DNA of 62,959 bases, the filler included. It is 4 parts of 4 records of this genome, joined end to end, with 100 filler letters (N's around TTAATTAATTAA, not from the genome) between each part and the next. Parts side by side here need not be neighbours in the genome. Positions count along the whole stretch, not along the records: positions 32,237 to 57,811 come from SRR2962707_4922; 3 more parts are not named here. One strand, 5' to 3'. The notes beneath the pieces were generated by a model. It made no database searches. It was given only the letters and a program-made list of their open reading frames with translations, and had not been told where the DNA came from. The position numbers were made by a program, and so were the translations under genes. This document shows, in pieces, positions 30,999 through 46,566 of the stretch. Position 1 is the first letter of the stretch, and every line of letters starts with the position of its first letter.

Positions 30999-32135
30999 TT
31001 AACTGCGCAATCCGGGCGCTTCCTGACCGGTACTCTGCACATATTCGCTATAGCCGCCGCCATAGGTGTGCACACCCTCGGGCGTCAGTTCCAGCACCCG
31101 ATTGGACAGCTCGGCCAGAAAGTGGCGATCATGGCTGACAAACAGCATGGTGCCTTCGAACTGGCGCAGCGCGTTGATCAGCATTTCCTTGGTCGCGATA
31201 TCCAGATGGTTGGTCGGCTCGTCCAGCACCAGGAAATTTGGCGGATCAAACAGCATCAGCGCCATCACCAGCCGCGCCTTCTCGCCGCCCGACAGCACGC
31301 GGCACTTCTTGTCCATCTCATCGCCCGAAAACCCGAAGGCGCCTGCCAGCGCCCGCAATGGCCCTTGCCCGGCCTGCGGGAAGGCGTCTTCAAGGCTCTG
31401 GAACACCGTGCGATCGCCATCGAGCACATCCATGGCGTGCTGGGCAAAATAGCCCATCTTGACGCTCGCCCCGACATTGACCGTGCCATTGTCGGGCTTG
31501 GAATCCCCGGCCACCAGCTTGAGCAGCGTCGACTTGCCCGCGCCATTCACGCCCATGATGCACCAGCGCTCGCGGCGCCGCACATGGAAGTCCAGTCCAT
31601 CGTAAATGGTACGGCTGCCATAGGCCTTGTCGACATTCTTGATCACCACCACATCGTCGCCCGAACGTGGCGCCGGGCGGAATTCAAACGCCACGGTATG
31701 GCGCCGCTTGGGGGGCTCCACCTTGTCGATCTTGTCGAGCTTCTTGACCCGGCTCTGCACCTGCGCCGCATGACTGGCACGTGCCTTGAACCGGTCGATA
31801 AAGGCAATTTCCTTGGCTAGCATGGCCTGCTGCCGCTCGAACTGCGCCTGCTGGTTCTTGTCGGCAATCGCACGCTGCTGCTGATAGAACTCGTAATCGC
31901 CCGTATAGGTCGTCAAATTCCCCGCATCGATCTCCACGATCTTGTTGACGATACGGTTCATGAACTCACGGTCATGGCTGGTCATCAGCAATGCGCCCGA
32001 ATAATTCTTCAGGAACGCCTCGAGCCAGATCAGGCTTTCCAGATCCAGATGGTTGCTTGGTTCGTCCAGCAGCAGCGCATCAGGCCGCATCAGCAGGATG
32101 CGGGCAAGCGCCACGCGCATCTTCCAGCCGCCCGA
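30999..32135 (-). CDS. ABC-F family ATP-binding protein, 5'-truncated
   Basis: SGGWKMRVALAR, LLLDEPSNHLD, SHDR, GVNGAGKST, LSGGEKAR and LDEPTNHLD motifs. Confidence 0.93.
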   Translation of the reverse strand, partial: SGGWKMRVALARILLMRPDALLLDEPSNHLDLESLIWLEAFLKNYSGALLMTSHDREFMNRIVNKIVEIDAGNLTTYTGDYEFYQQQRAIADKNQQAQFERQQAMLAKEIAFIDRFKARASHAAQVQSRVKKLDKIDKVEPPKRRHTVAFEFRPAPRSGDDVVVIKNVDKAYGSRTIYDGLDFHVRRRERWCIMGVNGAGKSTLLKLVAGDSKPDNGTVNVGASVKMGYFAQHAMDVLDGDRTVFQSLEDAFPQAGQGPLRALAGAFGFSGDEMDKKCRVLSGGEKARLVMALMLFDPPNFLVLDEPTNHLDIATKEMLINALRQFEGTMLFVSHDRHFLAELSNRVLELTPEGVHTYGGGYSEYVQSTGQEAPGLRS

Positions 32136-32136
32136 C

Positions 32137-32236
32137 NNNNNNNNNNNNNNNNNNNNNNNNNNNNNNNNNNNNNNNNNNNNTTAATTAATTAANNNNNNNN
32201 NNNNNNNNNNNNNNNNNNNNNNNNNNNNNNNNNNNN
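32137..32236. other. Artificial contig spacer
   Basis: N44-TTAATTAATTAA-N44. Confidence 0.99.
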
Positions 32237-32729: not shown

Positions 32730-34598
32730 TTACCAGACGACGGGGTGGGTTTGTCCTGTGGCGACATTTACCAGGCCATCAGGCGCCAGTGGTGACGGGG
32801 CAACCAGTACCCAGCGCCACGGCGCACAGGTGAGGGTTGCAAATGCCAGCCGCTCGGGGAATCCCGGCCACCAGCGTGGCGAGAAGGTGGGCTCATACAT
32901 CCAGTCGATTGTTTCTCCCTGGCGATAGAGTTCCTGCATCTCGGCATCCAGCTCGGCTGGCGGGCGTTGCGTCATCAGGCCACCAACCTCATAGCGTACC
33001 GTCGCCACCACCACACCATTGCGTACCAGCGCCCAGCCGCCCTGGGTCTGACGCAAAGCGTTCACTGCCTGCGCCATGGCGCTGTCCGACGAGCCAACCA
33101 CCCAGATATTGTGCTTGTCGTGGCCCATCGAACAGGCCAGCGCCACATCGGCTGTACTCGGCCCGGTGCCCAGCCAGAACATCTTTGACGTTTTCCCGGC
33201 GCCAGAGAAGCGGTCGACAATGGCAAACTTGGTGACGTTGCGGTCACTGTCGCGTTGCACCGCACCATCGCGCACCGGCAGGTCCATGGTGATGAAGTCA
33301 TCATCCCAGTGGAACGGGCGCAAAACCGCCGCATGCATGGTGTCGCGCCCGGGGACGGCAGGAATGGCGAAGTCGTCGGCCGTCATCTCCCGCTCGATAT
33401 TGATCGTCTGGGTTGCCCATTCTGGCCAGGCAATTGACGGCACCGGCCTGAGGAATTTCGTGCCGGCCGAGACCTGCTCGCCATCGGCCCAGACCTGATC
33501 GATTGCCAAGGTCTGCACATCATCAAGCAGCACGATATCGGCAAAGCGACCCGGCGCAATGGCGCCCACCCACGGGGTCAGCCGCATATGGCGTGCCGGG
33601 TTGATGGTCACCATCTGAATGGCAATTTCCGGCGCCAGCCCGGCCTGTATGGCCAGCCGGACATTGTGGTCGGTGGCGCCGATTTTCAGTGTGTCGGAAC
33701 AGGAGCGGTCATCGGTGCACAGGGCGAAATTGGACCAGTCGGTTTGTCCGGCAGCCCGCAGCCCGGTGACAATCTCGGCCAGTGAGTGCGGGCGCAGTTC
33801 AATGAACAGGCCGCGCCGCAGCTTGTCCTGCACTTCCTGGGTGGTCCAAGCTTCATGGTCCGAGGCCATGCCCGCCGCGGCAAAGGCGTTGATGTCGTCA
33901 ATGGCGCGCATGCCGGCGGCATGGCCTTCGACAACACCGCGTTGCTCGAAAGTGGCGCGGATCATGCCCCACAGACGCTCATAGGAAGGGTTTTCGGGGT
34001 TCCAGACAGCGGGCCAGTCCATCACCTCGTCGAGTCCGGCGACCATCAATTGCTGCTGGAGAAAACTCTGTTGCTCGGCATAGCCGAAATGACCGCCCCC
34101 CCATTCATAGGCGGTTGGCGGCACGGCAGAGCCGGGCAGGGGGAAGATCTTCATGGGCGAACCAGCCAGGCGCGCTGTCAGCCAGAATTCGAGATTGTGG
34201 GGTCCATCGACATTGGAAAATTCGTGGCTGGCCTCGCAGGTCCAAGTATTGCCGTGCGGCAGCACAAGTGCGGCCTCGTATTCCGGCGTCAAATGGCTGG
34301 ATTCGATATGTTTGTGGACTTCGCCAAAACCAGGCACGGCGCTCAGGTTGCCAGCATCAACCCGCTCACCCACTTCGCCGCTATAGGCGCCGGCGGGCCC
34401 CACCCAGGCAATACGGCGCCCGGCTATGACAATCTCCTGGTCCGCATGCCAGTTGCGGCCATATACATCGAGCAGCCGACCAACACGCACGATACGGTCA
34501 GCAGGGCGTTTGCCCAGAGCGACCAGCGCCAGGTTCTGCCGGATGCGGACTTCGTCAGCGGCGTTGATCAGCTGATCGGTCGGTAAGCTTGGTGTCAT
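32730..34598 (-). CDS. ade: Adenine deaminase family protein (paralogue 2)
   Basis: HKHIESS, DEVMD, EGH, DHE, CTDD, PGRFADIV and HDKHNI motifs. Confidence 0.85.
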   Translation of the reverse strand: MTPSLPTDQLINAADEVRIRQNLALVALGKRPADRIVRVGRLLDVYGRNWHADQEIVIAGRRIAWVGPAGAYSGEVGERVDAGNLSAVPGFGEVHKHIESSHLTPEYEAALVLPHGNTWTCEASHEFSNVDGPHNLEFWLTARLAGSPMKIFPLPGSAVPPTAYEWGGGHFGYAEQQSFLQQQLMVAGLDEVMDWPAVWNPENPSYERLWGMIRATFEQRGVVEGHAAGMRAIDDINAFAAAGMASDHEAWTTQEVQDKLRRGLFIELRPHSLAEIVTGLRAAGQTDWSNFALCTDDRSCSDTLKIGATDHNVRLAIQAGLAPEIAIQMVTINPARHMRLTPWVGAIAPGRFADIVLLDDVQTLAIDQVWADGEQVSAGTKFLRPVPSIAWPEWATQTINIEREMTADDFAIPAVPGRDTMHAAVLRPFHWDDDFITMDLPVRDGAVQRDSDRNVTKFAIVDRFSGAGKTSKMFWLGTGPSTADVALACSMGHDKHNIWVVGSSDSAMAQAVNALRQTQGGWALVRNGVVVATVRYEVGGLMTQRPPAELDAEMQELYRQGETIDWMYEPTFSPRWWPGFPERLAFATLTCAPWRWVLVAPSPLAPDGLVNVATGQTHPVVW

Positions 34599-35176
34599 GT
34601 CAGATGCCCTTCATCCAGCTTCTTGATGATCCAGTCGCGATAGCGCTGATCCTTGTTCCTGATTTCCGGCAAAACCCGTGACGCTTCCTCCATAAAGAAG
34701 CGATAGTCGCGTCCCATCTCCTGGCCGCGCCGGGTGTGCATGTCCAGTGCAATGTCGGGAATTTCAGGCATCTGCTCGCCCAGCGCCACAGCTTGCCGGG
34801 CCCAGTTCACCATGTCATCGGAGGTGCGGTCCTTCTCCGAACCTGCCAGAACCCTGATGGCATGGGCCGCAAACAGGAAGCGGTCCCCGCCGGGCCGGGC
34901 ATGACGCTGATGCTGCTGATACAGTGTCTCGATTAGCACTGGTGCCTGAGGATTGCCCATGCCGATGTCTTCAACCGCTATCACGCACAACCGGGACCAC
35001 AGCACTTCCTCGAGCTCGGCACTGGTCTGGTACATTTCCCAGCCCAGCAACAGGGCATTGTCTGTCATGCCCCGGCGCAGGCTCTTTTGCAGGGCCGAAA
35101 TGACCTCGTCTGCTGCCATTCCATGTTCGGTCGTGGTGCGCTGCCATGGATCGGCCGGTTGCTGAACCTTTATCAT
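34595..35176 (-). CDS. Stand-alone RarA/MgsA C-terminal helical-domain protein (no ATPase)
   Basis: DEVISALQKSLRRG, RL.VIAVEDIGMGNPQA and a LA.SEK segment. There is no Walker A or B motif. It has its own RBS (GGGAGA) and an ATGA overlap with ade. Confidence 0.75.
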   Translation of the reverse strand: MIKVQQPADPWQRTTTEHGMAADEVISALQKSLRRGMTDNALLLGWEMYQTSAELEEVLWSRLCVIAVEDIGMGNPQAPVLIETLYQQHQRHARPGGDRFLFAAHAIRVLAGSEKDRTSDDMVNWARQAVALGEQMPEIPDIALDMHTRRGQEMGRDYRFFMEEASRVLPEIRNKDQRYRDWIIKKLDEGHLT

Positions 35177-35288
35177 TCCAATTCTCCCATTGGCGGGTCA
35201 CGATCCGCGACCCGCACCTGTCATTATCATCCCGTGCACCAGGCCCAGTTCAGACCGCTGGTGGGCGGTACCCGTGGGCTGCAAATGC

Positions 35289-36302
35289 TCACATGGAGCT
35301 GCCACCGGTGAAGAGGGCAACAGATCTGCGCTCGATCAGCTCAAGCGGCAGCCGGGTCACCGGCTCCACCGGCTCCCCGTTCAGCAGAGCCAGCAAGAGC
35401 TCAAAGGCGAGACGTCCCATTTCGGGCACAGGCTGGCGGATCGTGGTCAGCGGTGGGTTCACCAGCTCGGCGAACGGCATGTCGTCGAACCCCACCAGGG
35501 ACATGTCATGCGGTACCGAAAGCCCGGCGCGCCGAAATGCCTGCAGGACACCGATGGCCAGATTGTCGGAACTGGCGAATATCGCGCTAGGACGGTGCTT
35601 CCGTGCGATGATCTGTTGCGCCACCTCACTGCCGAAGGAGCGGCTGTAGTCGCGCAGGAACACGTCCGAGGCGGCAAATGTCAGCCCGTCCTGCGCCATG
35701 GCGCGCGTGAACCCGGCCAGACGTTCACCGACGCTCATCAGCCCTGGGGGACCACCGATATACGCAATGTGGCGATGGCCGGCGTCAATCAGGTGGCGTG
35801 TCGCCAGATAGGCACCGCGTTCATTCTCAACAAAGACACTGGGAAGACAGATGCCGCGAACATCCTCGTCTAGAAGTACGACCTTGTCCTGATTGCCGAG
35901 CAGCTTTGCCAGTGACCCGTCATCGGGTTGGCTGGTGATCAGGACCATGCCGTCAACGTGCCGGTCGCGCATCCGACGGACGGCTTCGATCTCGCGGGCT
36001 CGATCGCCATGCGTGGATGACATGTAAACGGCATAACCGTGTTTTTCGGCTTCTGCTTCAACAGTAGCCGCGAGCTGGGCGAAGAAGGGGTTGTCGATTT
36101 CTGGCGTCACCAGGCCAATGGCTTCGGCGCGACCGGTCGACAGACGCTTGGCAAGCAGGTTTGGTCGGTAATCCAACTGCGCAATGGCCGCGTCGATGCG
36201 GTCCCGCGTGGCCTGTGGCAGGACGATACTGTTGTTGAGATGGCGCGATACCGTCGTGGGGGACACGCCTGCCGCTGACGCGACGTCACTTAGTGTCGGC
36301 AT
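35289..36302 (-). CDS. LacI-family transcriptional regulator
   Basis: TLSDVASAAGVSPTTVSR, YRPN, GFDD and PPLTTIRQP motifs. Confidence 0.95.
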   Translation of the reverse strand: MPTLSDVASAAGVSPTTVSRHLNNSIVLPQATRDRIDAAIAQLDYRPNLLAKRLSTGRAEAIGLVTPEIDNPFFAQLAATVEAEAEKHGYAVYMSSTHGDRAREIEAVRRMRDRHVDGMVLITSQPDDGSLAKLLGNQDKVVLLDEDVRGICLPSVFVENERGAYLATRHLIDAGHRHIAYIGGPPGLMSVGERLAGFTRAMAQDGLTFAASDVFLRDYSRSFGSEVAQQIIARKHRPSAIFASSDNLAIGVLQAFRRAGLSVPHDMSLVGFDDMPFAELVNPPLTTIRQPVPEMGRLAFELLLALLNGEPVEPVTRLPLELIERRSVALFTGGSSM

Positions 36303-36311
36303 GAAGCTGTC

Positions 36312-37052
36312 TCAAATGGCATGGCGCGCCCTCCACTCACCAATCAGCCGGATATTTTCCGCCACGATTCCGGCAAACAGGGCCGCGCCCTTTTTGGCGG
36401 TTGCGCGACATGGGTCACCAAAGCTGCCGGTCCCATTGAAGGTTCGCAATTGCATCGGTTCGAGACCAAAAGTTGGCGGGAATGAAGGATATTCGGGAAC
36501 GGCGCGAGACAGGTCGACCGCTTCAGGGCGAATGGCCAGCATCATGGCGGTCTCCACCTCATCGGCGTGGTAGAATCCGGGGGCTGCCGGTTGGCTATCG
36601 CAGATTTCGGAAGCCAGCTTTGCCAGGCCGGGGTAATCTAGGTGGATGACCGGCAGGCCAGCCTGAGCCAGTGTCCGCGCTGCCAGCGCGATGGGTTCGC
36701 GATTGCCGAAATGTCCGTTGATCACCACCAGACCCCGGACACCCATGCGCAGCACGCCGTTGCCGATCTCTTCGATCATGACGCGCAGTGTGGCTGGCGA
36801 AAGTGACAGGGTCCCGCTGAACGCCTCGTTATTCCAGGCGTCGCCATAGGCAATCGGGGGCAGGAGCAGCGCCGAAAGTGCATCGGCGGTGCGACGGGCG
36901 ACGCTGCTTGCCAAATCGGTATCGGTGCTTAGTGGAAGGTGGTGGCCGTGCTGCTCGCAGGCCCCAACGGGCAGTACCGCCAGCACGCCCTCATCTACCG
37001 CCGCTGCGACATCCACCCAAGACACTTGCGCCAAATCTCGACTGCCGCTCAT
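36312..37052 (-). CDS. Creatininase/formamide hydrolase family protein
   Basis: PVGACEQHGHHLPLSTD, NGHFGN and HADEVET motifs; GGAGA RBS before 37052. Confidence 0.88.
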   Translation of the reverse strand: MSGSRDLAQVSWVDVAAAVDEGVLAVLPVGACEQHGHHLPLSTDTDLASSVARRTADALSALLLPPIAYGDAWNNEAFSGTLSLSPATLRVMIEEIGNGVLRMGVRGLVVINGHFGNREPIALAARTLAQAGLPVIHLDYPGLAKLASEICDSQPAAPGFYHADEVETAMMLAIRPEAVDLSRAVPEYPSFPPTFGLEPMQLRTFNGTGSFGDPCRATAKKGAALFAGIVAENIRLIGEWRARHAI

Positions 37053-37321
37053 TCCATTGTTCTCCATATCCGCGCTCAGACTAGCGGTCGGACACCGCAA
37101 TCCGCAGCTGGCAAAACGTATCTGCCCGAGCAGCTACCGCCCTATTGGCCATGCGGCAGCGTTTCTCGCCGGGGGCCGCAGCATTGCGTATAGCGCATGA
37201 TCGCTACCCACCAATGTGTAGTTGCTTCCCTCTTGTGCATTTTTTCAAGCCGCATATGATTTAGGCATGAACCCAAATTGTGCATTTGACAAGACCTTGA
37301 GAAATGGCATGAGACCGACAC

Positions 37322-37349: not shown

Positions 37350-38693
37350 TTGAGCCGGGTTCTTCTCACCGATGCCGTCATTTTGACGGTGGACGAACGC
37401 AACAGCGTCCATAGCTGCGGCTGGCTTTCATTTGAGGATGGGCGGATCACCGGTCTGGGGCCGTCAGAGGTACAGCCCGAACCGAGCCGGTTTGACCGGG
37501 TGGTCAACATGGCCGGTCATCTGGTCATGCCTGGTCTGGTCAATGCGCATACACATTCCGCCATGGTGCTGTTTCGTGGACGTTCCGAGGGGCAGAGCCT
37601 GCTCACTATGGAAGGCTGGTACAACTCCATTCGCGAACCCGAGCTTTCCCTGATTGCCGACGATATCGCGCCAGCAGTCGCGCTCTCCTGTGCCGAGATG
37701 CTGCTTTCGGGCACGACAACATTTTGCGACCAGTACTTTTTTGCCTCCGAGATTGCCCAGGCAGCCGCTGAGAGCGGTATCCGCGCCGTGGTGGCCTACG
37801 GCATCGTGCAGTTGGGCGACAAGGCGCGCGGGGAGGTGGAGCTGGCCAATGCGGCTGCCTTCATAGAGCAGCAACGCACTGCCGATGGCCGCATCGTCCC
37901 GTGGTTTGGGCCCCATGCGCCCTATGTGGATAATTCGGAAGACCTGCTGCAGGCCGAGGTCGCCATGGCGGTCCACTACGGTGTAGGCCTGCACCTGCAT
38001 ATGGCCGCTGGCCCTGAGGATAATGAGCTGACCATGGCCCGCTATGGTCTGACCGCCACCCAGGCGCTCTTGCGCGATGGCTTTTTTGCCGGGCGGGTGC
38101 ACGCAGCGCATTGTCTTGATCTGTCAGCGGACGACATCGCCATTTTTGCTGCCGCGCCAGCTGCATCGGTGGCTTACTGTGCCTCGGCCGGTCTGCGTTC
38201 TGGCCGGGCGGGGGCATGCCCCGCAGTGGCGCTCAAGGCAGCCGGAGTGACCGTTGCGCTGGGGACTGACAATGTCGCGGCCAACAATGCCTATGACATG
38301 GTGTCTGAAATGCGCGTGGCCGGTCTGGTTGCTTCACATCGTGAGGGCGTTGCGCAGCCTATTTCGAGCGCCGAACTCATCCGCATGGCCACGATTGAGG
38401 GCGCCCGTGCTCTTGGGCTGGATCACGAGATCGGCTCGCTGGAGCCAGGCAAATCAGCCGATATCATCGCCATTGATATGCGCGGATCCGGCTATTCGGA
38501 AACCCCCGACTATGAAACGCTGCTGGTCTATTCCGGCAGCGGTCGCGACGTCGATAACGTCTGGGTCGCTGGGGAACAATTGGTTGCTGAGCGGCAGCTC
38601 GTTCGGCGACCCTATCAGGATATCCGATCCGCCTATTCCGCCACTTATTGCGATTTCTGGGCGCGGGTCGAAATCAACAAAAAAGGTAACTGA
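37350..38693 (+). CDS. MtaD/SsnA-like amidohydrolase with an altered catalytic motif
   Basis: PGLVNAHTH, PHAPY, AAHC, GTD and GSLEPGKSAD motifs; HxxE is replaced by HMAA. Confidence 0.85.
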   Translation: MSRVLLTDAVILTVDERNSVHSCGWLSFEDGRITGLGPSEVQPEPSRFDRVVNMAGHLVMPGLVNAHTHSAMVLFRGRSEGQSLLTMEGWYNSIREPELSLIADDIAPAVALSCAEMLLSGTTTFCDQYFFASEIAQAAAESGIRAVVAYGIVQLGDKARGEVELANAAAFIEQQRTADGRIVPWFGPHAPYVDNSEDLLQAEVAMAVHYGVGLHLHMAAGPEDNELTMARYGLTATQALLRDGFFAGRVHAAHCLDLSADDIAIFAAAPAASVAYCASAGLRSGRAGACPAVALKAAGVTVALGTDNVAANNAYDMVSEMRVAGLVASHREGVAQPISSAELIRMATIEGARALGLDHEIGSLEPGKSADIIAIDMRGSGYSETPDYETLLVYSGSGRDVDNVWVAGEQLVAERQLVRRPYQDIRSAYSATYCDFWARVEINKKGN

Positions 38694-38694
38694 C

Positions 38695-39657
38695 TTGTCC
38701 TCGAGTAAAAATCGCCTGATCCTGGATACCGATGGTGGTGTGGACGACGCACAGGCACTGTTGATGCTTATTGCCAATGGTCGGACACCGGACGCCATCA
38801 CCACGGTTTTCGGCAATGTCGGGCAGGATGTGGCAACCCAGAACATTCTCGCGACGCTGGCGGTCGCCAAGGTGGATGTTGCTGTCCATGCGGGAGCAGG
38901 GCGCCCGCTGACGCAGCCGGTGATCGACGCAAAGTATATCCATGGCGATGACGGTCTGGGGGGCGCGCCAAGGCCTGACGTGGTCGCTGATGTCGCCAGC
39001 GAAGACGCCAATGGCTTTCTGATCGAAACGCTGCACGCAGCTAGCACGCGCGGAGAAAAGATCGACATCCTGATGATTGGCCCACTGACCAATCTGGCAC
39101 TGGCGCTACGGCTTGATCCGACGATTATCAACGGGATCGGTCAACTCACCATTATGGGCGGAACGGTCTATGGTCGGGGCAATACGACGCCTGCGGCTGA
39201 ATTCAACATCTATGCCGACCCCGAGGCTGCCGCGATTGTGTTCGGCGCCGATATCGACATTCTCGTGGCGCCCTGGGAGCCTTGCGTGCTGCACAACATG
39301 ACCGGTGAGCACGTCGATGAGCTGTTTGAGGCTGTGCCCGACAGCCCACAAAAGGCGTTCTCCACCGCCTTGGCACGCCATGCCCGTCAGACTATTGCCG
39401 GCTATGGCGGCGGCGACAATTTCCGCTTTGTCGATCCGCTCGCTGCCGCCGCAGTGATCGAGCCCGATATCATCACCAAGTCCATCCGCGCATCGGTCGA
39501 TGTCGCTCTCGCGCCTGGCATCGCCCGGGGCATGACGATTGTTGACCCTTCAGGTCGCCTGGGTACGCCCATGGTGAGCCTGATCGAAGAGGTCAAGCTG
39601 GAGCGGCTCATCGCCCTCTACGCGGCCTCGATTGCCTTCGTTCCACAACACGCCTGA
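38695..39657 (+). CDS. IUNH-family nucleoside hydrolase (1)
   Basis: DTDGGVDD, FGN, HGDDGLG, GPLTNLA and AEFNIYADPEAA motifs; TTG start at 38695. Confidence 0.9.
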   Translation: MSSSKNRLILDTDGGVDDAQALLMLIANGRTPDAITTVFGNVGQDVATQNILATLAVAKVDVAVHAGAGRPLTQPVIDAKYIHGDDGLGGAPRPDVVADVASEDANGFLIETLHAASTRGEKIDILMIGPLTNLALALRLDPTIINGIGQLTIMGGTVYGRGNTTPAAEFNIYADPEAAAIVFGADIDILVAPWEPCVLHNMTGEHVDELFEAVPDSPQKAFSTALARHARQTIAGYGGGDNFRFVDPLAAAAVIEPDIITKSIRASVDVALAPGIARGMTIVDPSGRLGTPMVSLIEEVKLERLIALYAASIAFVPQHA

Positions 39658-39681: not shown

Positions 39682-40734
39682 ATGACGTTGAAAAATCTCT
39701 CCCGCCGTTCGGCCCTAGGCCTGCTGTCTGCCGTCGCCCTGATGGGCTCGGTTTCCTCCGGCGCGGTTCTGGCGCAGGAATATTCGGCCGAAAACCCGCT
39801 CAAGGTCGTGTTGGTGCTGCACGGTACCCTTGGTGACAAGAGCTTCTTCGACAGTGCTGCTGCGGGCATGGCCAAGGCCCAGGCCGAGCTACCTGTCGAA
39901 ATCAAGATCATTGAAGCGGGCTATGACAAGACCAAGTGGCAGCCTGCCTTGGCCGATGCTGCAGATAGCGGCTATGACGTTGTTATCGCAGGCACCTACG
40001 ATATGACGCCTTATATCACCGAGCTCGCTGACGAATATCCCGAGGTCAAGTTCATCGACTTCGACGATAGCCCGGACTTCAGCGGTGGTGCCTATCCAAA
40101 CGTGCTGTCGATCATGTACGGCACCTCAACTGCCGGCTATCTGGCTGGTTATGCCGCTGCCAAGGTGTCCGAGACGGGCACCATTGCAACCATTCTGGGC
40201 ATGGAATTCCCCACCGTCACCGATTTCAAGGTGGGGTTTGATCAGGGTGCCATGGATGCCAATCCCGACATCAATATCATCAGCACCGTGGCCGGTACGT
40301 TCTCCGATCCTGCAAAGGGCAAGGAAATAGCGCTGGCGCAGTTCGGTCAGGGCGCCGATGTGGTTTTCCCAATCGCGGGCTCCACCGGCATTGGCGCGCT
40401 GCAGGCCGCCAAGGAAAACGGCAAGCTCGCTGTTGGCGTGGACAGCGACCAGGCCACGGTCTTTGCCACCTCGGATCCCGAGCAGGCCGAGGTGATCTTC
40501 ACCTCGGTGGAAAAGAAGATCGGCGAGTCGCTGTTCCTGGCCCTCAAGGCCACGATTGATGGCACCCAGGAATACGGCAAACGCGAGCTGCTGGGGCTCA
40601 AGGATGGTGCGGTGGGGATCTCCAAGAACAGCTACTACGAAAAGCTCGTTTCCGCGGAAATTCGCGACGAGGTCGAGGCGCTTGAAGCCAAGATTGTCTC
40701 GGGCGAGCTGGTCCCCAATAGCGACATGGAATAG
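39682..40734 (+). CDS. BMP-family nucleoside ABC transporter substrate-binding protein
   Basis: LGDKSFFD, GYLAG, DPAKGKE and GVDSDQ motifs; RR-containing signal peptide. Confidence 0.9.
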   Translation: MTLKNLSRRSALGLLSAVALMGSVSSGAVLAQEYSAENPLKVVLVLHGTLGDKSFFDSAAAGMAKAQAELPVEIKIIEAGYDKTKWQPALADAADSGYDVVIAGTYDMTPYITELADEYPEVKFIDFDDSPDFSGGAYPNVLSIMYGTSTAGYLAGYAAAKVSETGTIATILGMEFPTVTDFKVGFDQGAMDANPDINIISTVAGTFSDPAKGKEIALAQFGQGADVVFPIAGSTGIGALQAAKENGKLAVGVDSDQATVFATSDPEQAEVIFTSVEKKIGESLFLALKATIDGTQEYGKRELLGLKDGAVGISKNSYYEKLVSAEIRDEVEALEAKIVSGELVPNSDME

Positions 40735-40739
40735 TCGCC

Positions 40740-40764
40740 TGGCGCCGCTGTCACGGCGGCGCCA
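40740..40764 (+). terminator. Intercistronic stem-loop after the SBP gene
   Basis: TGGCGCCGCTG-TCA-CGGCGGCGCCA followed by ATTCTGTTTT. Confidence 0.6.
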
Positions 40765-40788
40765 ATTCTGTTTTCTGGAGGGATCATC

Positions 40789-42333
40789 ATGGCGCCGCTA
40801 CTGCAAGCGACCGGCATCGGCAAGACGTATCCGGGTGGCGTTGTCGCCAATGACGGAGTCAATCTGACGGTTTCAGCTGGAGAGGTTCACGCCGTCGTGG
40901 GTGAAAACGGCGCCGGAAAATCGACCCTGATGAAAATCCTGTTCGGCATTGAGCGACCGGACGCCGGCGAACTCACCCTGGATGGCAAGCCGGTGAGCTT
41001 TGCCAATCCCCGCGACGCCATCGAGGCGGGCATTGGCATGGTTTTCCAGCATTTCTCTCTGGTGCCCTCGTTCTCGGTCTATGAGAACGTCGTGCTGGGG
41101 TCCGAACCCCGATCCGGTGCCAGGTTTGACCGCAAGCGCGCCATCGAAGAGGTGCGTGCCCTGTCGAAGCGCTTCCGGCTCAAGGTTGATCCCCTGCCTG
41201 CCGTGGGGACGTTGCCCGTAGGACAACAACAACGCGTGGAAATCCTCAAGGCGCTATACCGCGACGCGCGCATTCTCATTCTCGACGAGCCCACAGCTGT
41301 TCTTGCCCCCCAAGAGGTCGAGGAACTGTTTATCGCTGTGCGTGAACTGGTCGCGCAGGGCCGGACCGTCATCTTCATAGCCCACAAGCTGCCCGAGGTT
41401 TTGGAAATCTCCGACCGCATCACCGTAATGCGTGCCGGCCGATCGGTGGGCGAAGTGGGGCGCAGTGAGATCACCGAGCAAGGCCTGGCCACCATGATGG
41501 TCGGCCGCGACGTGGCGCTGCGCGTTGATCGTGCGGCGACCGCTGGTGCGCTGGCCTGCGAAATCAAGGCGCTCTGGGTCAGGAGCGAGAGCGGCCAACC
41601 CTTGCTGGAAGACCTAAATCTGCGTGTTCATGCCGGCGAAATCGTTGGACTTGTTGGCGTAGAAGGGAACGGGCAGGCCGCACTGATCGACGCCATATCG
41701 GGCGCCGGGCCGATGTCCGCAGGTGTCGCCTATCTCAACGGCACCAGTCTGGGGCCGCTCAGCACGCTGGAACGGCGCGCGATCGGGGTAGCCAACATCC
41801 CCGAAGACCGAATTGCCCAAGGGCTTGCAGGCGGGGCCAGCGTCGCCGAAAATCTAGTGGCCACCAAGCTGGGGGACAGGCGATATGTCCGGCGCGGACT
41901 GCTCGATCTCAGGGCAATCAAGGCAAACGCCGAGGCGCTGATTGCGCGATATTCAGTGCGGGTCGGTGGCGCGGACCAGGCCGTTGCCACGCTGTCTGGG
42001 GGCAATATGCAAAAGGTCGTGGTTGCCCGCGAACTGTCGGAGCAGCCCAAGCTGCTGCTGGTCAGCCAGCCGACACGCGGTGTCGATCTGGGCGCAACCC
42101 AGTTTATCTGGCGCTCATTGACCGATGCGCGTGACGCGGGCGCCGCGGTACTGCTCAGTTCTGCTGACCTGACCGAACTGCTCGCCCTGTCCGACCGTCT
42201 GGTGGTGTTCTATCGCGGTAAGCTTGTCGCCGCCTTCCACAACGATGACACGCTGACCCCGGAGATCCTGGGCAGCTACATGCTGGGTCTTGCCGTGCAG
42301 ACTCAGGAAGAAGTGATGGGAGCTCTCCGATGA
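40789..42333 (+). CDS. CUT2-type nucleoside ABC transporter ATPase (two domains)
   Basis: GENGAGKST, GMVFQHF, LDEPTAVL, LSGGNMQK and QPTRGVD motifs. Confidence 0.93.
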   Translation: MAPLLQATGIGKTYPGGVVANDGVNLTVSAGEVHAVVGENGAGKSTLMKILFGIERPDAGELTLDGKPVSFANPRDAIEAGIGMVFQHFSLVPSFSVYENVVLGSEPRSGARFDRKRAIEEVRALSKRFRLKVDPLPAVGTLPVGQQQRVEILKALYRDARILILDEPTAVLAPQEVEELFIAVRELVAQGRTVIFIAHKLPEVLEISDRITVMRAGRSVGEVGRSEITEQGLATMMVGRDVALRVDRAATAGALACEIKALWVRSESGQPLLEDLNLRVHAGEIVGLVGVEGNGQAALIDAISGAGPMSAGVAYLNGTSLGPLSTLERRAIGVANIPEDRIAQGLAGGASVAENLVATKLGDRRYVRRGLLDLRAIKANAEALIARYSVRVGGADQAVATLSGGNMQKVVVARELSEQPKLLLVSQPTRGVDLGATQFIWRSLTDARDAGAAVLLSSADLTELLALSDRLVVFYRGKLVAAFHNDDTLTPEILGSYMLGLAVQTQEEVMGALR

Positions 42334-43442
42334 GCACGACAGCAATCCTTGCCCGGCAGTCTCGTTGGAGCACTTTCCGAAAGGAAACGCTGCGCGCTGT
42401 GACCGCGATCGCGGTGGCCCTGCTGGTCACCATCATCGTGGTTCTGCTCACCTCCAAGGCACCATTGGAGGCACTCAACACGCTGCTGACCGCTCCAGCT
42501 TCTAAGCCCCGTACCATCGGCCTGTGGTTCGATGATGTGGCCAAGCTCACAGTGACCGGTCTGGCCTTCTCCCTGGTATTTCAGGCCCGCCAATTTGCCC
42601 TGGGCGTCCAGGGACAGATCTATGTCGGTGCGCTCGCATCGTCCTATGTGGCGCTCTCGCCCATTGGGCCCACCTTTGCAGCCATTCCGCTGGGCATTGC
42701 TGCGGCGATGCTTGCAGGTGCCGCCTGGGGATTCATCCCTGGCATTGCCAAGGCCAAATTGGGGGCCAATGAAATCGTCTCGTCGCTGATGCTGAACTAT
42801 ATCGCGATTGAGCTGTGCAATTTTCTGGTCCGCGTGCAACTGCGTGAGAGGCCAGGCGTCCTGACATCACTGAAATTTCCAGACGCCGCCGTTTTCCCAC
42901 CCCTAATTCCAGGCACCCGCATCGATCTGGGCCTCATTCTGGCGCTTGTTGCGACGGTTCTCGTCTGGTTTGCGCTTTATCGCACGAGCTGGGGTCTCAA
43001 GCTCCGTCTTGTCGGTCACAATGCCCGCTTTGCGGAATATGCCGGCATCAAGTCTTCGCTGATCATGGTTTCGGCCATGACTGCTGCAGGTGCTCTTGGA
43101 GGCATGCTGGGGGCAATGTTCGTGCAGGGTCAGACCTATGGCAAAATCACCGTGCTGTTTGAGGGCGGTCTGGCCTTTGAGGGCATTCTTGTTGCCATCG
43201 TGGCCCGCAGCCGGCCACTGGCCGTGCCTGTTGTAGCGATCTTTTACGGCTATCTGCGCCAAGGTGCGCAACTGATGAACATTCGTACCGACGTGCCGGC
43301 GGAAGTGATCGGAGTTGTGACCGCCATCATCATCCTGCTGGTATCCTCCTCCTTCTCGGTGCCAGGCAAGAAATGGCTATCAGCGCAGTTTGGGCGCCGG
43401 GCGCAGCCAGCAGGCCTGTCAGCCGATGGAGCGGCCAAATGA
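42330..43442 (+). CDS. Nucleoside ABC transporter permease 1
   Basis: GQ, NEIVSSLMLNYI and G.N.RFAEYAGI motifs. Confidence 0.9.
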   Translation: MSTTAILARQSRWSTFRKETLRAVTAIAVALLVTIIVVLLTSKAPLEALNTLLTAPASKPRTIGLWFDDVAKLTVTGLAFSLVFQARQFALGVQGQIYVGALASSYVALSPIGPTFAAIPLGIAAAMLAGAAWGFIPGIAKAKLGANEIVSSLMLNYIAIELCNFLVRVQLRERPGVLTSLKFPDAAVFPPLIPGTRIDLGLILALVATVLVWFALYRTSWGLKLRLVGHNARFAEYAGIKSSLIMVSAMTAAGALGGMLGAMFVQGQTYGKITVLFEGGLAFEGILVAIVARSRPLAVPVVAIFYGYLRQGAQLMNIRTDVPAEVIGVVTAIIILLVSSSFSVPGKKWLSAQFGRRAQPAGLSADGAAK

Positions 43443-44389
43443 TCGAACTCTTCGCCACAATCATGTCGTCAGCCTTCTTTGTCACCGTCATTCGAACGAC
43501 AACGCCGCTCCTGCTGGCAACATTGGGTGGATTGATTGCCGACCTTTCCGGTGCGCTCAATGTGGCGCTGGAGGGCCAGATGCTGGTGGGCTGCCTGACG
43601 GCCGTGATCGTATCGGTCTATGCGCCCTGGTATGTTGCGGTACTGGCCGGGCTTGCGGCGGGTGCAGTGCTGGGCCTGGTGATGGCAATCTTTGCGCTGC
43701 GGTTGAAAGCCGACATCATTCTAGTCGGGTTCGCTATCAACATCATGGCGGCGGGCGGCACCGTCTTTGCCCTAGCCATGGCGACCGGCGGCGACAAGGG
43801 TACATCGATCAATCTGGCCTCCAAGGCCATTCCGCCAGTCGATCTGTCGTTCCTAGGTGTCATCCCCGGTATCGGGCCATTGCTGGTGTCACTATTGTCG
43901 GGGCACTCTGTATTGTCGTGGGTCGCCGCTTTCCTCGTCTTCGCCATCTGGTATTTTCTTTATCGCATGCCGTGGGGGCTGTGGCTGCGCGGGGTGGGGG
44001 AATATCCCGCGGCGCCTGAAGCGGCCGGTATACCGGTCAATGCCGTGCGGGCCTGGAGCTTGGTGGTGTCGGGTGCACTGGCCGGCCTTGGCGGCGCCCA
44101 ACTGGCCATGTTCAATTATGTCGGCTTCGCGCGTGACATGACGGCTGGTCGCGGCTTTATCGCCCTGGGTGCCGTGCTGCTGGGCGCTCGACATCCGGTC
44201 GGTGCCCTTTTGGCGGCCCTGCTGTTCGGAGCATTCGAAGGGCTTGCCGTAGTCATGCCTGGCCTGTTCGCCGATGCACCCGCCGAACTGATCCGCATGA
44301 TCCCCTTCGTCGTGACCATTCTGGCACTGATGCTGTTCAGCTACCGCGCCCAGCGTGCCCTCAAGCTCAGAGGCGTGAAATCCGCATGA
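43439..44389 (+). CDS. Nucleoside ABC transporter permease 2
   Basis: TPLLLA..GG, SGALNVALEG, GEYP.A and GRGFIAL motifs; ATGA overlap. Confidence 0.9.
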   Translation: MIELFATIMSSAFFVTVIRTTTPLLLATLGGLIADLSGALNVALEGQMLVGCLTAVIVSVYAPWYVAVLAGLAAGAVLGLVMAIFALRLKADIILVGFAINIMAAGGTVFALAMATGGDKGTSINLASKAIPPVDLSFLGVIPGIGPLLVSLLSGHSVLSWVAAFLVFAIWYFLYRMPWGLWLRGVGEYPAAPEAAGIPVNAVRAWSLVVSGALAGLGGAQLAMFNYVGFARDMTAGRGFIALGAVLLGARHPVGALLAALLFGAFEGLAVVMPGLFADAPAELIRMIPFVVTILALMLFSYRAQRALKLRGVKSA

Positions 44390-44419: not shown

Positions 44420-45799
44420 GTGAGGCCTATTGCGGTGCCTGAAGAACTGGATCGCAATCGGTGCCGGGGCATTTACGGCACCTTCTTTCAGGCGCCCACG
44501 GCCGGCGAACTGGCAGTGCTGGAAAACAGGCTGATCCTGGTCGATGAGGCCGGTGTGATCAGCGCGGTCCTCGCCGAGGATGACCCGGCGCAGGCCACGG
44601 CGATAGCTGCGCTTGGCGAGGCGCTTGTGCGGCTGCCCGAAGGGCAGTTTGGCCTGCCGGGCTTTGTCGATCTGCACATCCACGCGCCGCAATATTCCCA
44701 GCTTGGGCAGGCGCTGGACGCGCCGCTGGAGGTCTGGCTGCAAAAATACACCTTTCCACTCGAGGCCAGTTACGCAGACCTGGGGTTCGCCCGCCCGCGC
44801 TATGAAGCACTGGTAGCAGACTTGCTGGCAATCGGGACCACCACGGCGCTGTATTTTGCAACGCAAGACCGCGCCGCAACTGAACTCCTCGCCGAGATCT
44901 GCATGGCCAAGGGCCAGCGCGCTCTGGTGGGCAAGGTCGTGATGGATGATCCGGCCGGATGTCCGGACTATTATCGCGACGAGTCAGCTGAAACCGCCAT
45001 CGCCGAGACGCGCGCAGTGATCGAGCATATCCGCACGCATCCCGCAAATGCCGACGGACGTGTGCTGCCGGTCATCACGCCGCGTTTTATTCCGTCCTGC
45101 ACCGATGCGGCCCTGGACGGCCTGGGAAAACTGGCAGTCGAATGCGGCTGCCATATCCAGTCGCATTGCAGCGAAAGTGACTGGGCTCATGGCCATGTCC
45201 TTGAACGCTTTGGCCATACCGATGCCGAAGCCCTCGACCGCTTTGGTCTGCTGACGCGCAAGACGGTTCTGGCTCATTCGAATTTTCTAACCGATGCTGA
45301 CATGGATCGCCTTGCCGCGCGCGGCACGGCTGTTGCTCATTGTGCGCTGTCCAATGTCTACTTTGCGAACGCTGTATTCCCGTTGCGGCGGGCGCTCGAA
45401 AAGCATTTGCATGTTGGTCTGGGCACCGACATTTCAGGTGGTCCGAGCGCCTCGATGTTCGAGGCCTGTCGCACCACAGTGCAATCCTCGCGCTTGCTCG
45501 AAGATGGCGTGGACCCCACGCTATCGGCCGCAGAGCGGGGAACGGCGGGGTCGCGGATTGATCTGGTAACCGCCTTTCACCTGGCGACGGCGGGCGGTGG
45601 AGTTGCGCTGGACCTGCCGATCGGCATCCTTGCGCCGGGCTATCGTCTCGATCTGATTGCTGTCGACACCATGGCAGAGGAGGGTACTATCCGCCTGTTT
45701 GGCGAGACGCACCCTCAGGCCGTCTTCGAGAAAATTCTCTACTGTGCCAGCCGCGCCAATATTGCCGCTGTCTGGGTCGACGGCCAGCAGGTTTGCTGA
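44420..45799 (+). CDS. guaD: Guanine deaminase
   Basis: PGFVDLHIHAPQY, WL.KYTFP.E, GTTTA.YFAT, ITPRF.PSC, HCSE and GTDISGG motifs. Confidence 0.92.
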   Translation: MRPIAVPEELDRNRCRGIYGTFFQAPTAGELAVLENRLILVDEAGVISAVLAEDDPAQATAIAALGEALVRLPEGQFGLPGFVDLHIHAPQYSQLGQALDAPLEVWLQKYTFPLEASYADLGFARPRYEALVADLLAIGTTTALYFATQDRAATELLAEICMAKGQRALVGKVVMDDPAGCPDYYRDESAETAIAETRAVIEHIRTHPANADGRVLPVITPRFIPSCTDAALDGLGKLAVECGCHIQSHCSESDWAHGHVLERFGHTDAEALDRFGLLTRKTVLAHSNFLTDADMDRLAARGTAVAHCALSNVYFANAVFPLRRALEKHLHVGLGTDISGGPSASMFEACRTTVQSSRLLEDGVDPTLSAAERGTAGSRIDLVTAFHLATAGGGVALDLPIGILAPGYRLDLIAVDTMAEEGTIRLFGETHPQAVFEKILYCASRANIAAVWVDGQQVC

Positions 45800-46492: not shown

Positions 46493-46566
46493 GAGAGGTT
46501 TCCTTGCTGGGGCGCGGCAAATGTTGGATGCTGCAGCAACGTTGATTTTCAAGAGCTTAGCAATCC

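Follow-up and report, generated by a model that had tools for sequence, protein, structure and literature searches.

A stand-alone RarA/MgsA C-terminal domain family in bacterial uptake and catabolic operons and in phage-like gene cassettes

Introduction

RarA consists of ATPase, lid, and tetramerization domains and works as a tetramer (PMC6374455, PMC5389604). Published abstracts still describe the molecular role of RarA, MgsA, and WRNIP1 as obscure. The helical collar (domain III) of clamp loaders like RFC, T4 gp44, delta, and gamma/tau holds the oligomer together. To our knowledge, the RarA C-terminal domain (MgsA_C; Pfam PF12002) has no known role beyond assembly, and no metabolic operon has been described to encode a free clamp-loader collar. 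Sugar-transport operons encode small cytoplasmic enzymes that are needed right after uptake such as the ribose pyranase RbsD or the maltose-6'-phosphate phosphatase MapP.

Here, we describe a 193-aa protein that is a free-standing RarA C-terminal domain, encoded in a window of 62,959 nucleotides (the whole stretch of DNA that was analyzed). It shares with the RarA/MgsA/WRNIP1 domain (3PVS, 2R9G, 8G28, 3BGE, 3CTD, and 2QW6) its sequence, its fold, the S..K..R, R-L, EDIG, and K motifs and, by prediction, the tetrameric state. Unlike RarA, it lacks the AAA+ ATPase and lid and is encoded by a separate gene, and its family is found away from DNA-repair settings, in catabolic and transport operons or in cassettes for phage DNA glycosylation. 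By analogy, it may resemble RbsD and MapP as a small soluble protein encoded beside ABC or PTS uptake genes, though it is unrelated to them in sequence or fold. Our literature search (MgsA_C/PF12002; RarA-, MgsA-, or WRNIP1-like proteins; PTS and nucleoside contexts) found no paper on this stand-alone family.

Results

The locus

The gene of the 193-aa protein has an ATG start and belongs to a minus-strand unit of creatininase, LacI, MgsA_C, and Ade-family genes that diverges from a unit encoding a deaminase-like amidohydrolase, a nucleoside hydrolase, and a PnrA-type ABC system (Table 1). Judged by their domains, the genes of the latter system probably form a nucleoside-type ABC importer. The start of the nucleoside hydrolase gene is uncertain, with the mechanical ORF beginning at 38254 and the domain at about 38716.

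Table 1. Features of the locus, with positions along the window
Feature	Position	Strand	Basis
N-run with TTAATTAATTAA linker; joint of two contigs, non-biological	32137..32236	.	sequence
tRNA gene 3' end at contig start	32237..32266	+	sequence ...GGTTCGATTCCCGC...CCA; tRNA-Gly TCC in G001
Ade-family amidohydrolase, 622 aa	32730..34598	-	PF13382 E 3.5e-29 + PF01979
Stand-alone MgsA_C CDS (RarA collar/tetramerization domain; P0001), 193 aa	34595..35176	-	ORF, PF12002, AF2 model, homologues
ATGA stop/start overlap of MgsA_C and Ade-family genes	34595..34598	-	sequence; ORF TGA 34595-34597, Ade-family ATG 34596-34598
Shine-Dalgarno-like GGGAGA, 6 nt before ATG	35183..35188	-	sequence
mRNA-strand hairpin, 9-10 bp, loop GAU, in 112-nt LacI-MgsA_C spacer	35193..35215	-	MFE fold
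LacI-family regulator, upstream of and co-directional with the 193-aa ORF	35289..36302	-	PF00356 + PF13377
Creatininase-family amidohydrolase, opens minus-strand unit	36312..37100	-	PF02633 E 1.4e-60
TRZ/ATZ-type amidohydrolase (deaminase-like), divergent	37350..38693	+	PF01979; NF006549 292.6 bits, under its cut-off
Inosine-uridine-preferring nucleoside hydrolase	38689..39657	+	PF01156 E 1.7e-74, residues 155-452 of 467-aa ORF
PnrA/Bmp-type substrate-binding protein + ABC ATPase + two permeases	39682..44389	+	PF02608, PF00005, PF02653 x2

PF12002 matches residues 57 to 164 of the ORF (profile positions 22 to 128 of 167) with an E-value of 4.6e-9 and 36.8 bits, above the gathering cut-off of 27. 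The three motifs quoted in a first-pass annotation are all present (VISALQKSLRRG, SRLCVIAVEDIGMGNPQAP, and IPDIALDMHTRRG). That annotation was also right in reporting no ATPase domain: No Pfam AAA or P-loop family matches the 193-aa protein, and NCBIfam matches stay below threshold, covering positions ~256 to 387 of 730-aa AAA ATPase models with 18 to 32 bits against cut-offs of 570 to 1197. The tail PD.ALDMHT.RG, which had been called distinct, is so only in part, since the D-x-H and some flanking residues are family-specific, but the tail as such aligns with the C-terminal segment of RarA up to residue 371 of 8g28 and residue 385 of RarA from G001, the nearest genome.

The gene has a ribosome-binding site of its own, and the proposed ATGA overlap with the downstream gene is genuine, so that both genes appear to be co-translated. 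This downstream gene had been read as ade. It does belong to the Ade family, but scores only 290.5 bits for the TIGR01178 "ade" equivalog, whose cut-off is 472.5, and is thus best called an Ade-family paralogue rather than a proven adenine deaminase.

A distinct family rather than truncated RarA

The 193-aa gene is intact and not a fragment, as first proposed from its signals. A search for proteins of similar length found 1,194 at E ≤ 1e-3, and the best 120 of these are 75% to 99% identical and 192 to 201 aa long, which shows that the ORF did not arise by chance. The corresponding search of representatives (clusters at 50% identity) returned 685 clusters at E ≤ 1e-10 and 1,715 at E ≤ 1e-3; the RarA C-terminal domain thereby persists alone as a large family. 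Its homologues are not normally full-length RarA, which would make the gene a truncation, since none of the best 150 representatives has the length of RarA (420 to 460 aa). Fused forms at E ≤ 1e-10 are just two, PF07090+PF12002 (P0278) and ABC_tran+PF12002 (P0279), and a scan of 16 long representatives for domain fusions gave PF12002 alone or no domain.

The nearest genome carries both a 443-aa RarA (224 bits) and the 193-aa gene, which is therefore an extra paralogue beside full-length RarA. Alignment with hhalign matches residues 254 to 385 of this RarA (probability 97.8, E 9e-13) at an identity of ~26% of aligned positions. Among 301 sampled genomes of the same class, 216 have a match at E ≤ 1e-15; the stand-alone gene is found only in G001 among the matches listed, and the others listed reach at most 76 bits and are nearly all frames of RarA length. 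We therefore reject a truncated RarA or pseudogene, given the narrow length range of the relatives, the separate RarA of G001, and longer forms that are only fusions to other domains.

Where source databases give a name, members are mostly called "AAA family ATPase" or "RarA". All clusters returned from the ESM Atlas likewise carry the name MgsA_C or "AAA family ATPase", and one cluster is 50% viral. Sequence matches in the PDB are exclusively RarA or RarA C-terminal fragments (8g28, 3ctd, 2qw6, 2r9g, 3bge, and 3pvs), and PADLOC gave no defence-system match for the 3 family members queried. The stand-alone MgsA_C family is distinct and old, composed of proteins of ~190 to 210 aa that comprise the RarA/MgsA C-terminal domain and a conserved tail without ATPase or lid.

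Fold and predicted tetramer

The AF2 model of the 193-aa protein has a pLDDT of 96.5, and Foldseek retrieves RarA C-terminal structures exclusively at E ≤ 1e-3 (8e-7 to 1e-4), with 2qw6 matching more weakly at 1.7e-2. The structure comparison with MgsA suggested by the first-pass annotation bears out the assignment: In VIA, 2r9g, 8g28, 3pvs, 3bge, and 2qw6 superpose on model residues 10 to 135 with Z-scores of 14.5 to 16.9 and rmsd of 1.3 to 2.0 over ~85 to 115 residues, while the geometry beyond residue ~135 does not superpose on RarA structures. Clamp-loader collars (RFC, gp44, and delta) also superpose over ~85 to 92 residues of the helical bundle, but their Z-scores of 6.7 to 9.3 lie in a range that is common among helical bundles (below ~13 according to the tool's own note) and their sequence identity is only 8% to 14%.

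Co-folding predicts that the protein forms a homotetramer. Four copies scored 0.96 in 3 of 3 runs compared to 0.18 for the best control, with a contact agreement of at least 96% and a partner pLDDT of at least 91. In calibration, 20 of 30 proteins whose solved structures are pairs of one chain attain the mark used, compared to 1 of 23 single-chain proteins; these rates apply here only roughly because the calibration was done with two copies and with different alignments. The high score may also stem from a resemblance to RarA, whose tetramer structure is solved (3PVS).

Across 101 sequences from four clades, S27, K31, R62, D70, and K115 are invariant in all. E24, Q30, R35, R117, D145, and H147 are near-invariant and specific to the family, differing in the RarA of G001, where R35, R117, D145, and H147 correspond to G, N, N, and P. 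About 16 of 22 conserved positions lie inside the predicted interface of ~103 residues, and this enrichment is modest given that the interface makes up about half of the chain. Conserved polar residues in such subunit contacts may be kept for assembly alone.

Gene neighborhoods in bacteria

We compared the loci of the best 80 of 128 relatives (52 Firmicutes, 26 alphaproteobacterial, and 2 Chloroflexi), which had been fished with peptide patterns from the 193-aa protein, so that this is a biased sample and all numbers are raw counts. The coupling to adenine deaminase that had been proposed for the window does not extend to the family. Only 4 of the 80 loci have an adjacent Ade gene, and 7 have one at any position; the abutting or overlapping arrangement of the window recurs in L003, L004, L015, and L019, and Ade lies elsewhere within the cluster in L022, L023, and L025. 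Other loci have different adjacent genes, encoding GATase1_like proteins, ribokinase, PF05014 proteins, DeoD, or PTS EIIC. The link to Ade is thus local and the immediate neighbor changes by lineage, making the pairing in the window a local arrangement that does not define the function of the protein.

What the bacterial members have in common is that they belong to substrate-uptake and catabolic operons. In Firmicutes, a lactose/cellobiose-type PTS EIIC gene is found in 50 of 52 loci and directly adjoins the MgsA_C gene in the same orientation in 40, while an RpiR gene is adjacent and divergent in 30 and DeoD adjacent in 9. About 30 of these loci are a bare RpiR < MgsA_C > EIIC unit with otherwise non-recurring neighbors. 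Some PTS operons include DeoD and DeoB, and the gene order EIIC-IIB-IIA-MgsA_C-DeoD-DeoD-DeoB of Erysipelotrichaceae may represent a PTS for a nucleoside-like glycoside. Alphaproteobacterial and Chloroflexi clusters combine nucleoside-type ABC systems with nucleoside hydrolase, deaminases, and ribokinase. The adjacent gene in alphaproteobacterial loci encodes a GATase1_like protein (12/26), a PF05014 protein (9/26), or ribokinase (3/26); an ABC system of either the Bmp or the NMT1 type is encoded in 17 of these 26 loci, and one of the NMT1 type in 10. The gene order in both Chloroflexi loci is IUNH > MgsA_C > Bmp-ABC.

The expectation that genes of nucleoside metabolism would be enriched near ~190-aa homologues is largely borne out, as a nucleoside-type gene occurs in most alphaproteobacterial loci (20/26), in both Chloroflexi loci, and in 11 of the 52 Firmicutes loci (raw counts). 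The flanks of the other 41 Firmicutes loci contain no recognizable nucleoside gene, suggesting that "nucleoside-type" may be too narrow a description for this clade.

A phage-like clade

The neighborhoods of a distant member (P0247) revealed a second setting in phage-like ParB-glycosyltransferase cassettes. In these loci, MgsA_C genes lie beside genes for ParB_N proteins and DNA glycosyltransferases, and in phages the MgsA_C gene follows those of a glycosyltransferase and sugar-nucleotide enzymes. No Ade gene was detected in 21 phage-like loci. No TET/JBP dioxygenase was matched by Pfam among 96 ORFs of these cassettes, which does not imply absence given that the contigs are short. Two studies of T-dioxygenases (PMC13229309; preprint 10.1101/2025.08.14.668559) label an "AAA" gene, and the methods of the preprint define this label by PF13555, PF00004, PF07728, and PF13238, not by PF12002. 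The location of the phage clade in DNA-modification cassettes means that a DNA-directed role fits these members as well as a small-molecule role.

Discussion

The RarA C-terminal domain thus occurs alone in two sharply defined settings, bacterial nucleoside- or PTS-type utilization operons and phage DNA-glycosylation cassettes. We propose that the 193-aa protein would act as a non-ATPase homotetramer with its near-invariant polar residues largely in predicted subunit contacts (S27, Q30, K31, R34, and R35 of helix 1; E69 and D70; K115 and R117; D145, H147, and T148 of the tail loop). Together, these residues may create composite sites for binding or converting an intermediate of nucleoside type, ribosyl or glycosyl, that the different pathways share, and the protein would be a general pathway component rather than a dedicated deaminase subunit. 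It may be a repurposed nucleotide- or nucleobase-binding enzyme, as the first-pass annotation suggested. As a whole, we regard this explanation as somewhat favored; its account of the family and its genomic context is very probably correct, while the ligand-binding or catalytic function is put forward tentatively. A single shared ligand is less obvious given that PTS systems deliver phosphorylated substrates and ABC systems do not. A wider and more speculative reading, which we find doubtful though worth stating, is that the free RarA collar is an unrecognized tetrameric module for recognizing or processing compounds of the nucleoside, nucleotide, or glycosyl-nucleobase type in bacterial uptake and catabolic operons as well as in the ParB-glycosyltransferase cassettes of phage DNA hypermodification. 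If so, the conserved C-terminal domain of RarA itself would hold a related ligand site.

A sharper version of our proposal would make the protein a new enzyme, either a metal-dependent phosphohydrolase or one of another kind, with a phosphorylated nucleoside or sugar as its substrate (NMP, NDP, or a PTS product). Such an enzyme would take the position of a phospho-glycosidase or phosphatase in PTS operons, supply nucleoside catabolism with nucleotides, and clear a nucleotide by-product near phage glycosyltransferases. The near-invariant E69/D70 and D145/H147 together with a Lys/Arg cluster (K31, R34, R35, R62, K115, and R117) in all four clades would suit such an enzyme, as would the phage gene order and the many Firmicutes loci with just RpiR and EIIC, as RpiR/SIS regulators usually sense sugar phosphates. 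We nevertheless consider it unlikely that this version is correct because the clamp-loader-type collar fold has no known catalytic member, several of the residues are common to RarA where no such activity is known, and they sit in predicted subunit contacts.

Considerably less likely is a non-catalytic oligomeric adaptor that docks on the uptake system (EIIC or ABC) or on a regulator (RpiR, LacI, or PRD) and tunes transport or induction. Transporters are encoded in most loci (EIIC in nearly all Firmicutes; ABC systems in most alphaproteobacterial and both Chloroflexi loci), the fusion of ABC_tran to PF12002 exists, and the parent domain is an assembly domain. Yet the conserved surface of the protein stays constant while transporters and regulators belong to unrelated families in different clades, loci of the window type have MgsA_C away from the transporter genes, and the phage clade is without transporter.

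Very improbable is the idea closest to the first-pass annotation, that the protein serves specifically the Ade-family deaminase, as its accessory subunit or chaperone, being made at a fixed ratio through the ATGA overlap and forming a complex with it. The overlap itself and the loci with abutting or clustered Ade genes would be expected from such a partnership, but Ade is rare across the sample, the near-invariant residues are kept in clades whose loci gave no Ade match (52 loci of Firmicutes, 2 of Chloroflexi, and 21 phage-like ones), and elsewhere the translationally close neighbor is a GATase1_like protein, ribokinase, a PF05014 protein, DeoD, or EIIC. Least probable of all is a DNA-directed role kept from RarA through DNA or SSB binding or mixed tetramers with RarA, which would draw on the homology to its tetramerization domain, the presence of RarA in the same genome, and the ParB_N and glycosyltransferase genes beside the phage-like clade but would leave the metabolic neighbors incidental despite an operon context kept across three bacterial phyla, the low identity to the RarA of G001 with differing predicted-contact residues (R35, R117, D145, and H147), and a stand-alone gene confined to G001 among the matches listed from its class.

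Whichever function it serves, the small, well-folding, and tractable 193-aa protein lends itself to probing what conserved polar residues contribute to the RarA C-terminal domain, and the family offers a clue to a step still unassigned in the catabolism of nucleosides or glycosides and in the hypermodification of phage DNA. Its recognition also allows genome annotation to be corrected for members now carrying the name of an ATPase or of RarA.

Leader hairpin and contig boundary

The 10-bp hairpin described upstream of the gene forms with 9 pairs in the MFE structure and 10 when the outer G-C is counted, including one G-U pair. The 126-nt leader as a whole is only modestly stable (z = -1.75), as 9 of 200 shuffled sequences fold equally well, and in G001 the region is 99% identical with two differences, one of which breaks a stem pair. 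An intrinsic terminator is rejected for this hairpin, given the absence of a T-run and an empty terminator scan at this position. Beyond the other end of the minus-strand unit, where its contig begins with the 3' end of a tRNA gene, the tRNA-Gly gene of G001 lies 463 bp past the Ade-family gene.

A stand-alone RarA collar domain encoded by an intact gene

The MgsA_C gene encodes the C-terminal domain of RarA (PF12002; 36.8 bits with a Pfam cut-off of 27) and contains the motifs VISALQKSLRRG, SRLCVIAVEDIGMGNPQAP, and IPDIALDMHTRRG that had originally pointed to this assignment. No Pfam match to an AAA or P-loop family was found in the ORF, and NCBIfam gave only far sub-threshold matches at positions of about 256 to 387 of long AAA ATPase models. 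A profile built from 46 members of the family aligns with residues 254 to 385 of RarA from G001, the nearest comparison genome (probability 97.8, E 9e-13), and the solved structures matching by sequence are exclusively RarA or its C-terminal fragments (8g28, 3ctd, 2qw6, 2r9g, 3bge, and 3pvs). The AlphaFold2 model is all-helical (pLDDT 96.5) and retrieves nothing but RarA C-terminal structures with Foldseek at E<=1e-3; a structure search independent of Foldseek recovered RarA C-terminal structures (Z 14.5–16.9, rmsd 1.3–2.0, model residues about 10–135), followed by clamp-loader collar domains at Z 6.7–9.3. RarA is described as comprising ATPase, lid, and tetramerization domains and as being active as a tetramer (PMC6374455 and PMC5389604); given this layout and the matched region, the ORF represents the tetramerization (collar) domain together with a conserved tail. 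This tail, initially considered distinct, is homologous to RarA's own segment, and only its D-x-H and a few flanking residues are family-specific.

A near-length search returned 1194 proteins (E<=1e-3). Those in the top 120 are 192–201 aa long and 75–99% identical; where named, they are mostly called "AAA family ATPase" or "RarA". An exhaustive representative search without length filter yielded 1715 clusters at E<=1e-3 (685 at E<=1e-10), with no RarA-length protein (420–460 aa) among the best 150 representatives and no second Pfam domain in the 16 longer ones scanned. A search for longer forms gave only two fusions, of PF07090 with PF12002 (P0278; 436 aa, 76% identical) and of ABC_tran with PF12002 (P0279). 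G001, which is 100% complete and has 38% of the window's sampled words in common, encodes both a RarA of 443 aa (224 bits) and, elsewhere, a separate 193-aa MgsA_C gene in the same LacI-spacer-gene-Ade layout as the window. Across 301 evenly sampled genomes of the same class (matches at E<=1e-15), G001 alone has a stand-alone copy (251 bits, 200-aa frame); in 215 others every listed match stays at or below 76 bits, nearly all in frames of about 420–600 aa that represent ordinary RarA and a few in shorter frames on short contigs, and the remaining 85 have no match at this threshold. The unpublished genomes G041 and G241 in this sample are without a stand-alone copy. With homologues of its own length and a full-length RarA also present in G001, the first-pass annotation was right to see an intact gene rather than a fragment: this is a conserved, stand-alone RarA collar-domain gene and an extra paralogue, which its occurrence in only one of 301 genomes, beside full-length RarA, marks as accessory and patchily distributed.

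The local signals described previously are likewise present, i.e., a GGGAGA ribosome-binding box 6 nt 5' of the ATG, an ATGA shared by the stop codon and the start of the following gene, and an upstream hairpin of 9–10 bp with loop GAU. The hairpin is without a T-run, and a terminator scan makes no call there. The stability of the 126-nt leader is only mildly above that of shuffles (z = -1.75), and the sole comparable leader, from G001, is 99% identical with 2 differences, 1 of which breaks a stem pair; we therefore assign the hairpin no function. The contig carrying MgsA_C opens within the 3'-terminal part of a tRNA whose G001 counterpart is tRNA-Gly(TCC), 463 bp past the Ade-family gene. Because an N-run with the linker TTAATTAATTAA joins two contigs at this side, the genes to its left, where the joint cuts an ABC-F-like ORF, are not neighbours of the MgsA_C gene.

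Features of the MgsA_C region in the window
Feature	Position	Strand	Remark
ABC-F-like ORF	30999–32120	-	cut by contig joint
N-run and linker	32137–32236		contig joint
Ade-family gene	32730–34598	-	amidohydrolase, 622 aa
MgsA_C CDS	34595–35176	-	193 aa, ATG start; ORF reading
LacI-MgsA_C spacer	35177–35288		112 nt
Hairpin	35193–35215		in spacer
LacI-family gene	35289–36302	-	
Further amidohydrolase	37350–38693		
Nucleoside hydrolase, mechanical ORF	38254–39657	+	467 aa
Further amidohydrolase	44420–45799		
Phosphoribosyltransferase	45806–46591		
M20 peptidase	46567–47733		
Creatininase-family gene			same cluster as Ade-family gene

Conservation and predicted assembly

Five residues (S27, K31, R62, D70, and K115) are invariant in 101 sequences from four clades, and E24, Q30, R34, R35, E69, R117, D145, H147, and T148 nearly so. 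Compared to RarA of G001, E24, Q30, R35, R117, A143, D145, H147, and G151 are specific to the family. Co-folding of four copies scored 0.96 in each of 3 runs compared to 0.18 for the best of 3 controls (contact agreement >=96%, partner pLDDT >=91), and the mark used was reached by 20/30 proteins with structures solved as same-chain pairs and 1/23 solved as single chains in a calibration with two copies and other alignments. Since the RarA tetramer has been solved, this pass may reflect mere likeness. In the model, helix 1 (S27, Q30-K31, R34-R35) packs against the 135–150 loop of the adjoining subunit (P140, A143, D145, H147, T148), and E69/D70 and K115/R117 are likewise in contact. The predicted interface holds about 16/22 conserved positions, which is only mildly informative because it covers about 103/193 residues, and such positions would fit assembly or composite inter-subunit sites alike.

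Genomic neighbourhoods of bacterial members

We clustered the flanking ORFs of the best 80 of 128 bacterial relatives, a sample biased towards relatives of the window protein, named the clusters by Pfam and NCBIfam, and counted them by tblastn. Identity to the window protein is 62–84% for alphaproteobacterial loci (n = 26), 55–57% for Chloroflexi (n = 2), and 47–52% for Firmicutes (n = 52); nucleoside-type genes lie in the flanks of 20/26, 2/2, and 11/52 of them, respectively (raw counts). The constant company of the family is an uptake system together with nucleoside- or glycoside-processing enzymes, not adenine deaminase. From this company and the predicted assembly we tentatively infer that the MgsA_C protein could be a homotetramer binding or acting on a ribosyl or glycosyl nucleoside-type intermediate; a phosphohydrolase-like enzyme would be the sharpest version of this reading and is in itself rather doubtful.

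Nearly all Firmicutes loci (50/52, with both exceptions at contig ends) carry a lactose/cellobiose-family PTS EIIC, which adjoins MgsA_C on the same strand in 40, and RpiR is adjacent in 30. Layouts are either a minimal RpiR < MgsA_C > EIIC or an operon of PRD regulator, IIA, IIB, EIIC, and MgsA_C, with IIA and IIB genes in 20 and 22 loci, respectively. The minimal form (L036–L058 and others) is without other recurring neighbours and often without a nearby IIA or IIB. These adjacencies are what an adaptor of transporters or regulators might leave behind, a role that we consider unlikely. The order EIIC-regulator-IIB-IIA-MgsA_C-DeoD is found in 9/52 loci, mostly of Erysipelotrichaceae, some with a second purine nucleoside phosphorylase (DeoD) and 4 with phosphopentomutase; this joining of PTS and DeoD suggests that the PTS substrate is a nucleoside-like glycoside. 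The full Erysipelotrichaceae-type operon (L060, L062, L064, L072, L075, L077, and L079) reads EIIC - PRD/Mga regulator - IIB - IIA - MgsA_C - DeoD - (GH4) - YczE-like membrane protein - DeoD - phosphopentomutase. In a Sporosarcina genome, two tandem MgsA_C copies follow a PTS operon (L049, 6001–7218).

Among alphaproteobacterial loci, 12/26 (L003–L007, L015, L019–L023, and L025) have a GATase1_like gene (PF07090) immediately before MgsA_C, giving the order LacI > GATase1_like > MgsA_C, often with stop/start overlap. Next in line comes Ade, ribokinase (3 loci), or no further gene. This unit is divergent from TRZ/ATZ amidohydrolase, nucleoside hydrolase, and Bmp-ABC genes. The window and G001 are without GATase1_like, leaving only the short LacI-MgsA_C spacer, and no PF07090 match was found anywhere in G001. 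MgsA_C is the last gene of an RpiR-controlled NMT1-type ABC operon in 10/26 loci, a PF05014 (nucleoside 2-deoxyribosyltransferase-like) gene directly follows it in 9/26, and 4/26 show other contexts. Both Chloroflexi loci read TRZ/ATZ > IUNH > MgsA_C > Bmp > ABC > permeases.

In the window lineage, MgsA_C is co-translated with the Ade-family amidohydrolase in a nucleoside-type catabolic/uptake cluster beside a tRNA gene. The coupling to adenine deaminase proposed earlier does not extend to the family, however, as Ade occurs in 7/80 loci and adjoins MgsA_C in just 4 (L003, L004, L015, and L019), so that a dedicated Ade subunit appears very improbable. The neighbouring gene itself scores 290.5 bits with TIGR01178, under the cut-off of 472.5, which makes it a paralogue within the Ade family, of uncertain substrate. 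Together, the amidohydrolases, creatininase-family protein, phosphoribosyltransferase, and M20 peptidase of this cluster may serve catabolism of modified purine nucleosides. The nucleoside hydrolase domain begins at residue 155 of its mechanical ORF; translation probably begins at a GTG close to 38689, overlapping the stop codon of the preceding amidohydrolase gene.

A phage clade of the family

The MgsA_C domain itself is already known; we found no literature dealing with the family of stand-alone forms or with its bacterial and phage settings, and the available text of 2025–26 phage T-dioxygenase papers, figures and supplements aside, makes no mention of it. Leads to viral members came from PHROGs and the ESM Atlas. 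A 28%-identical gene is present in 62 phage records (56 Microbacterium and 5 Arthrobacter phages among them), labelled "AAA-ATPase" even though the Microbacterium phage gene is without an ATPase domain. In phage Jayden (L083), it is preceded by genes annotated as ParB-like nuclease-domain protein, glycosyltransferase, and UDP-glucose dehydrogenase. Relatives of the distant member P0247 lie in 39 metagenomic loci in which terminase, portal, and integrase genes also occur; 18 of the loci encode a TET-associated glycosyltransferase (TAGT; PF20691) and 21 a ParB_N protein, usually in the order (PIG-L > WbqC-like >) ParB > TAGT > MgsA_C. Scanning 96 ORFs of these short contigs revealed no TET/JBP domain. 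A retained DNA- or RarA-directed role, for which the RarA fold would speak, appears the least probable reading beside the uptake and catabolic genes of the bacterial loci. As an idea, sugar-linked nucleobases could be a theme common to phage DNA glycosylation and bacterial nucleoside catabolism or beta-glucoside-type PTS.

In a family tree rooted on the RarA C-terminus of G001, the window sequence falls among the 26 sequences from Alphaproteobacteria (support 0.945), the phage-like sequences are a clade of their own (0.858), and the Firmicutes clade is weakly supported (0.376). The PIG-L/WbqC-like/ParB_N/TAGT/MgsA_C cassette immediately precedes terminase and portal genes (L123, L125, L130, L131, L134, L135, L137, L138, L140, L142, L143, and others).
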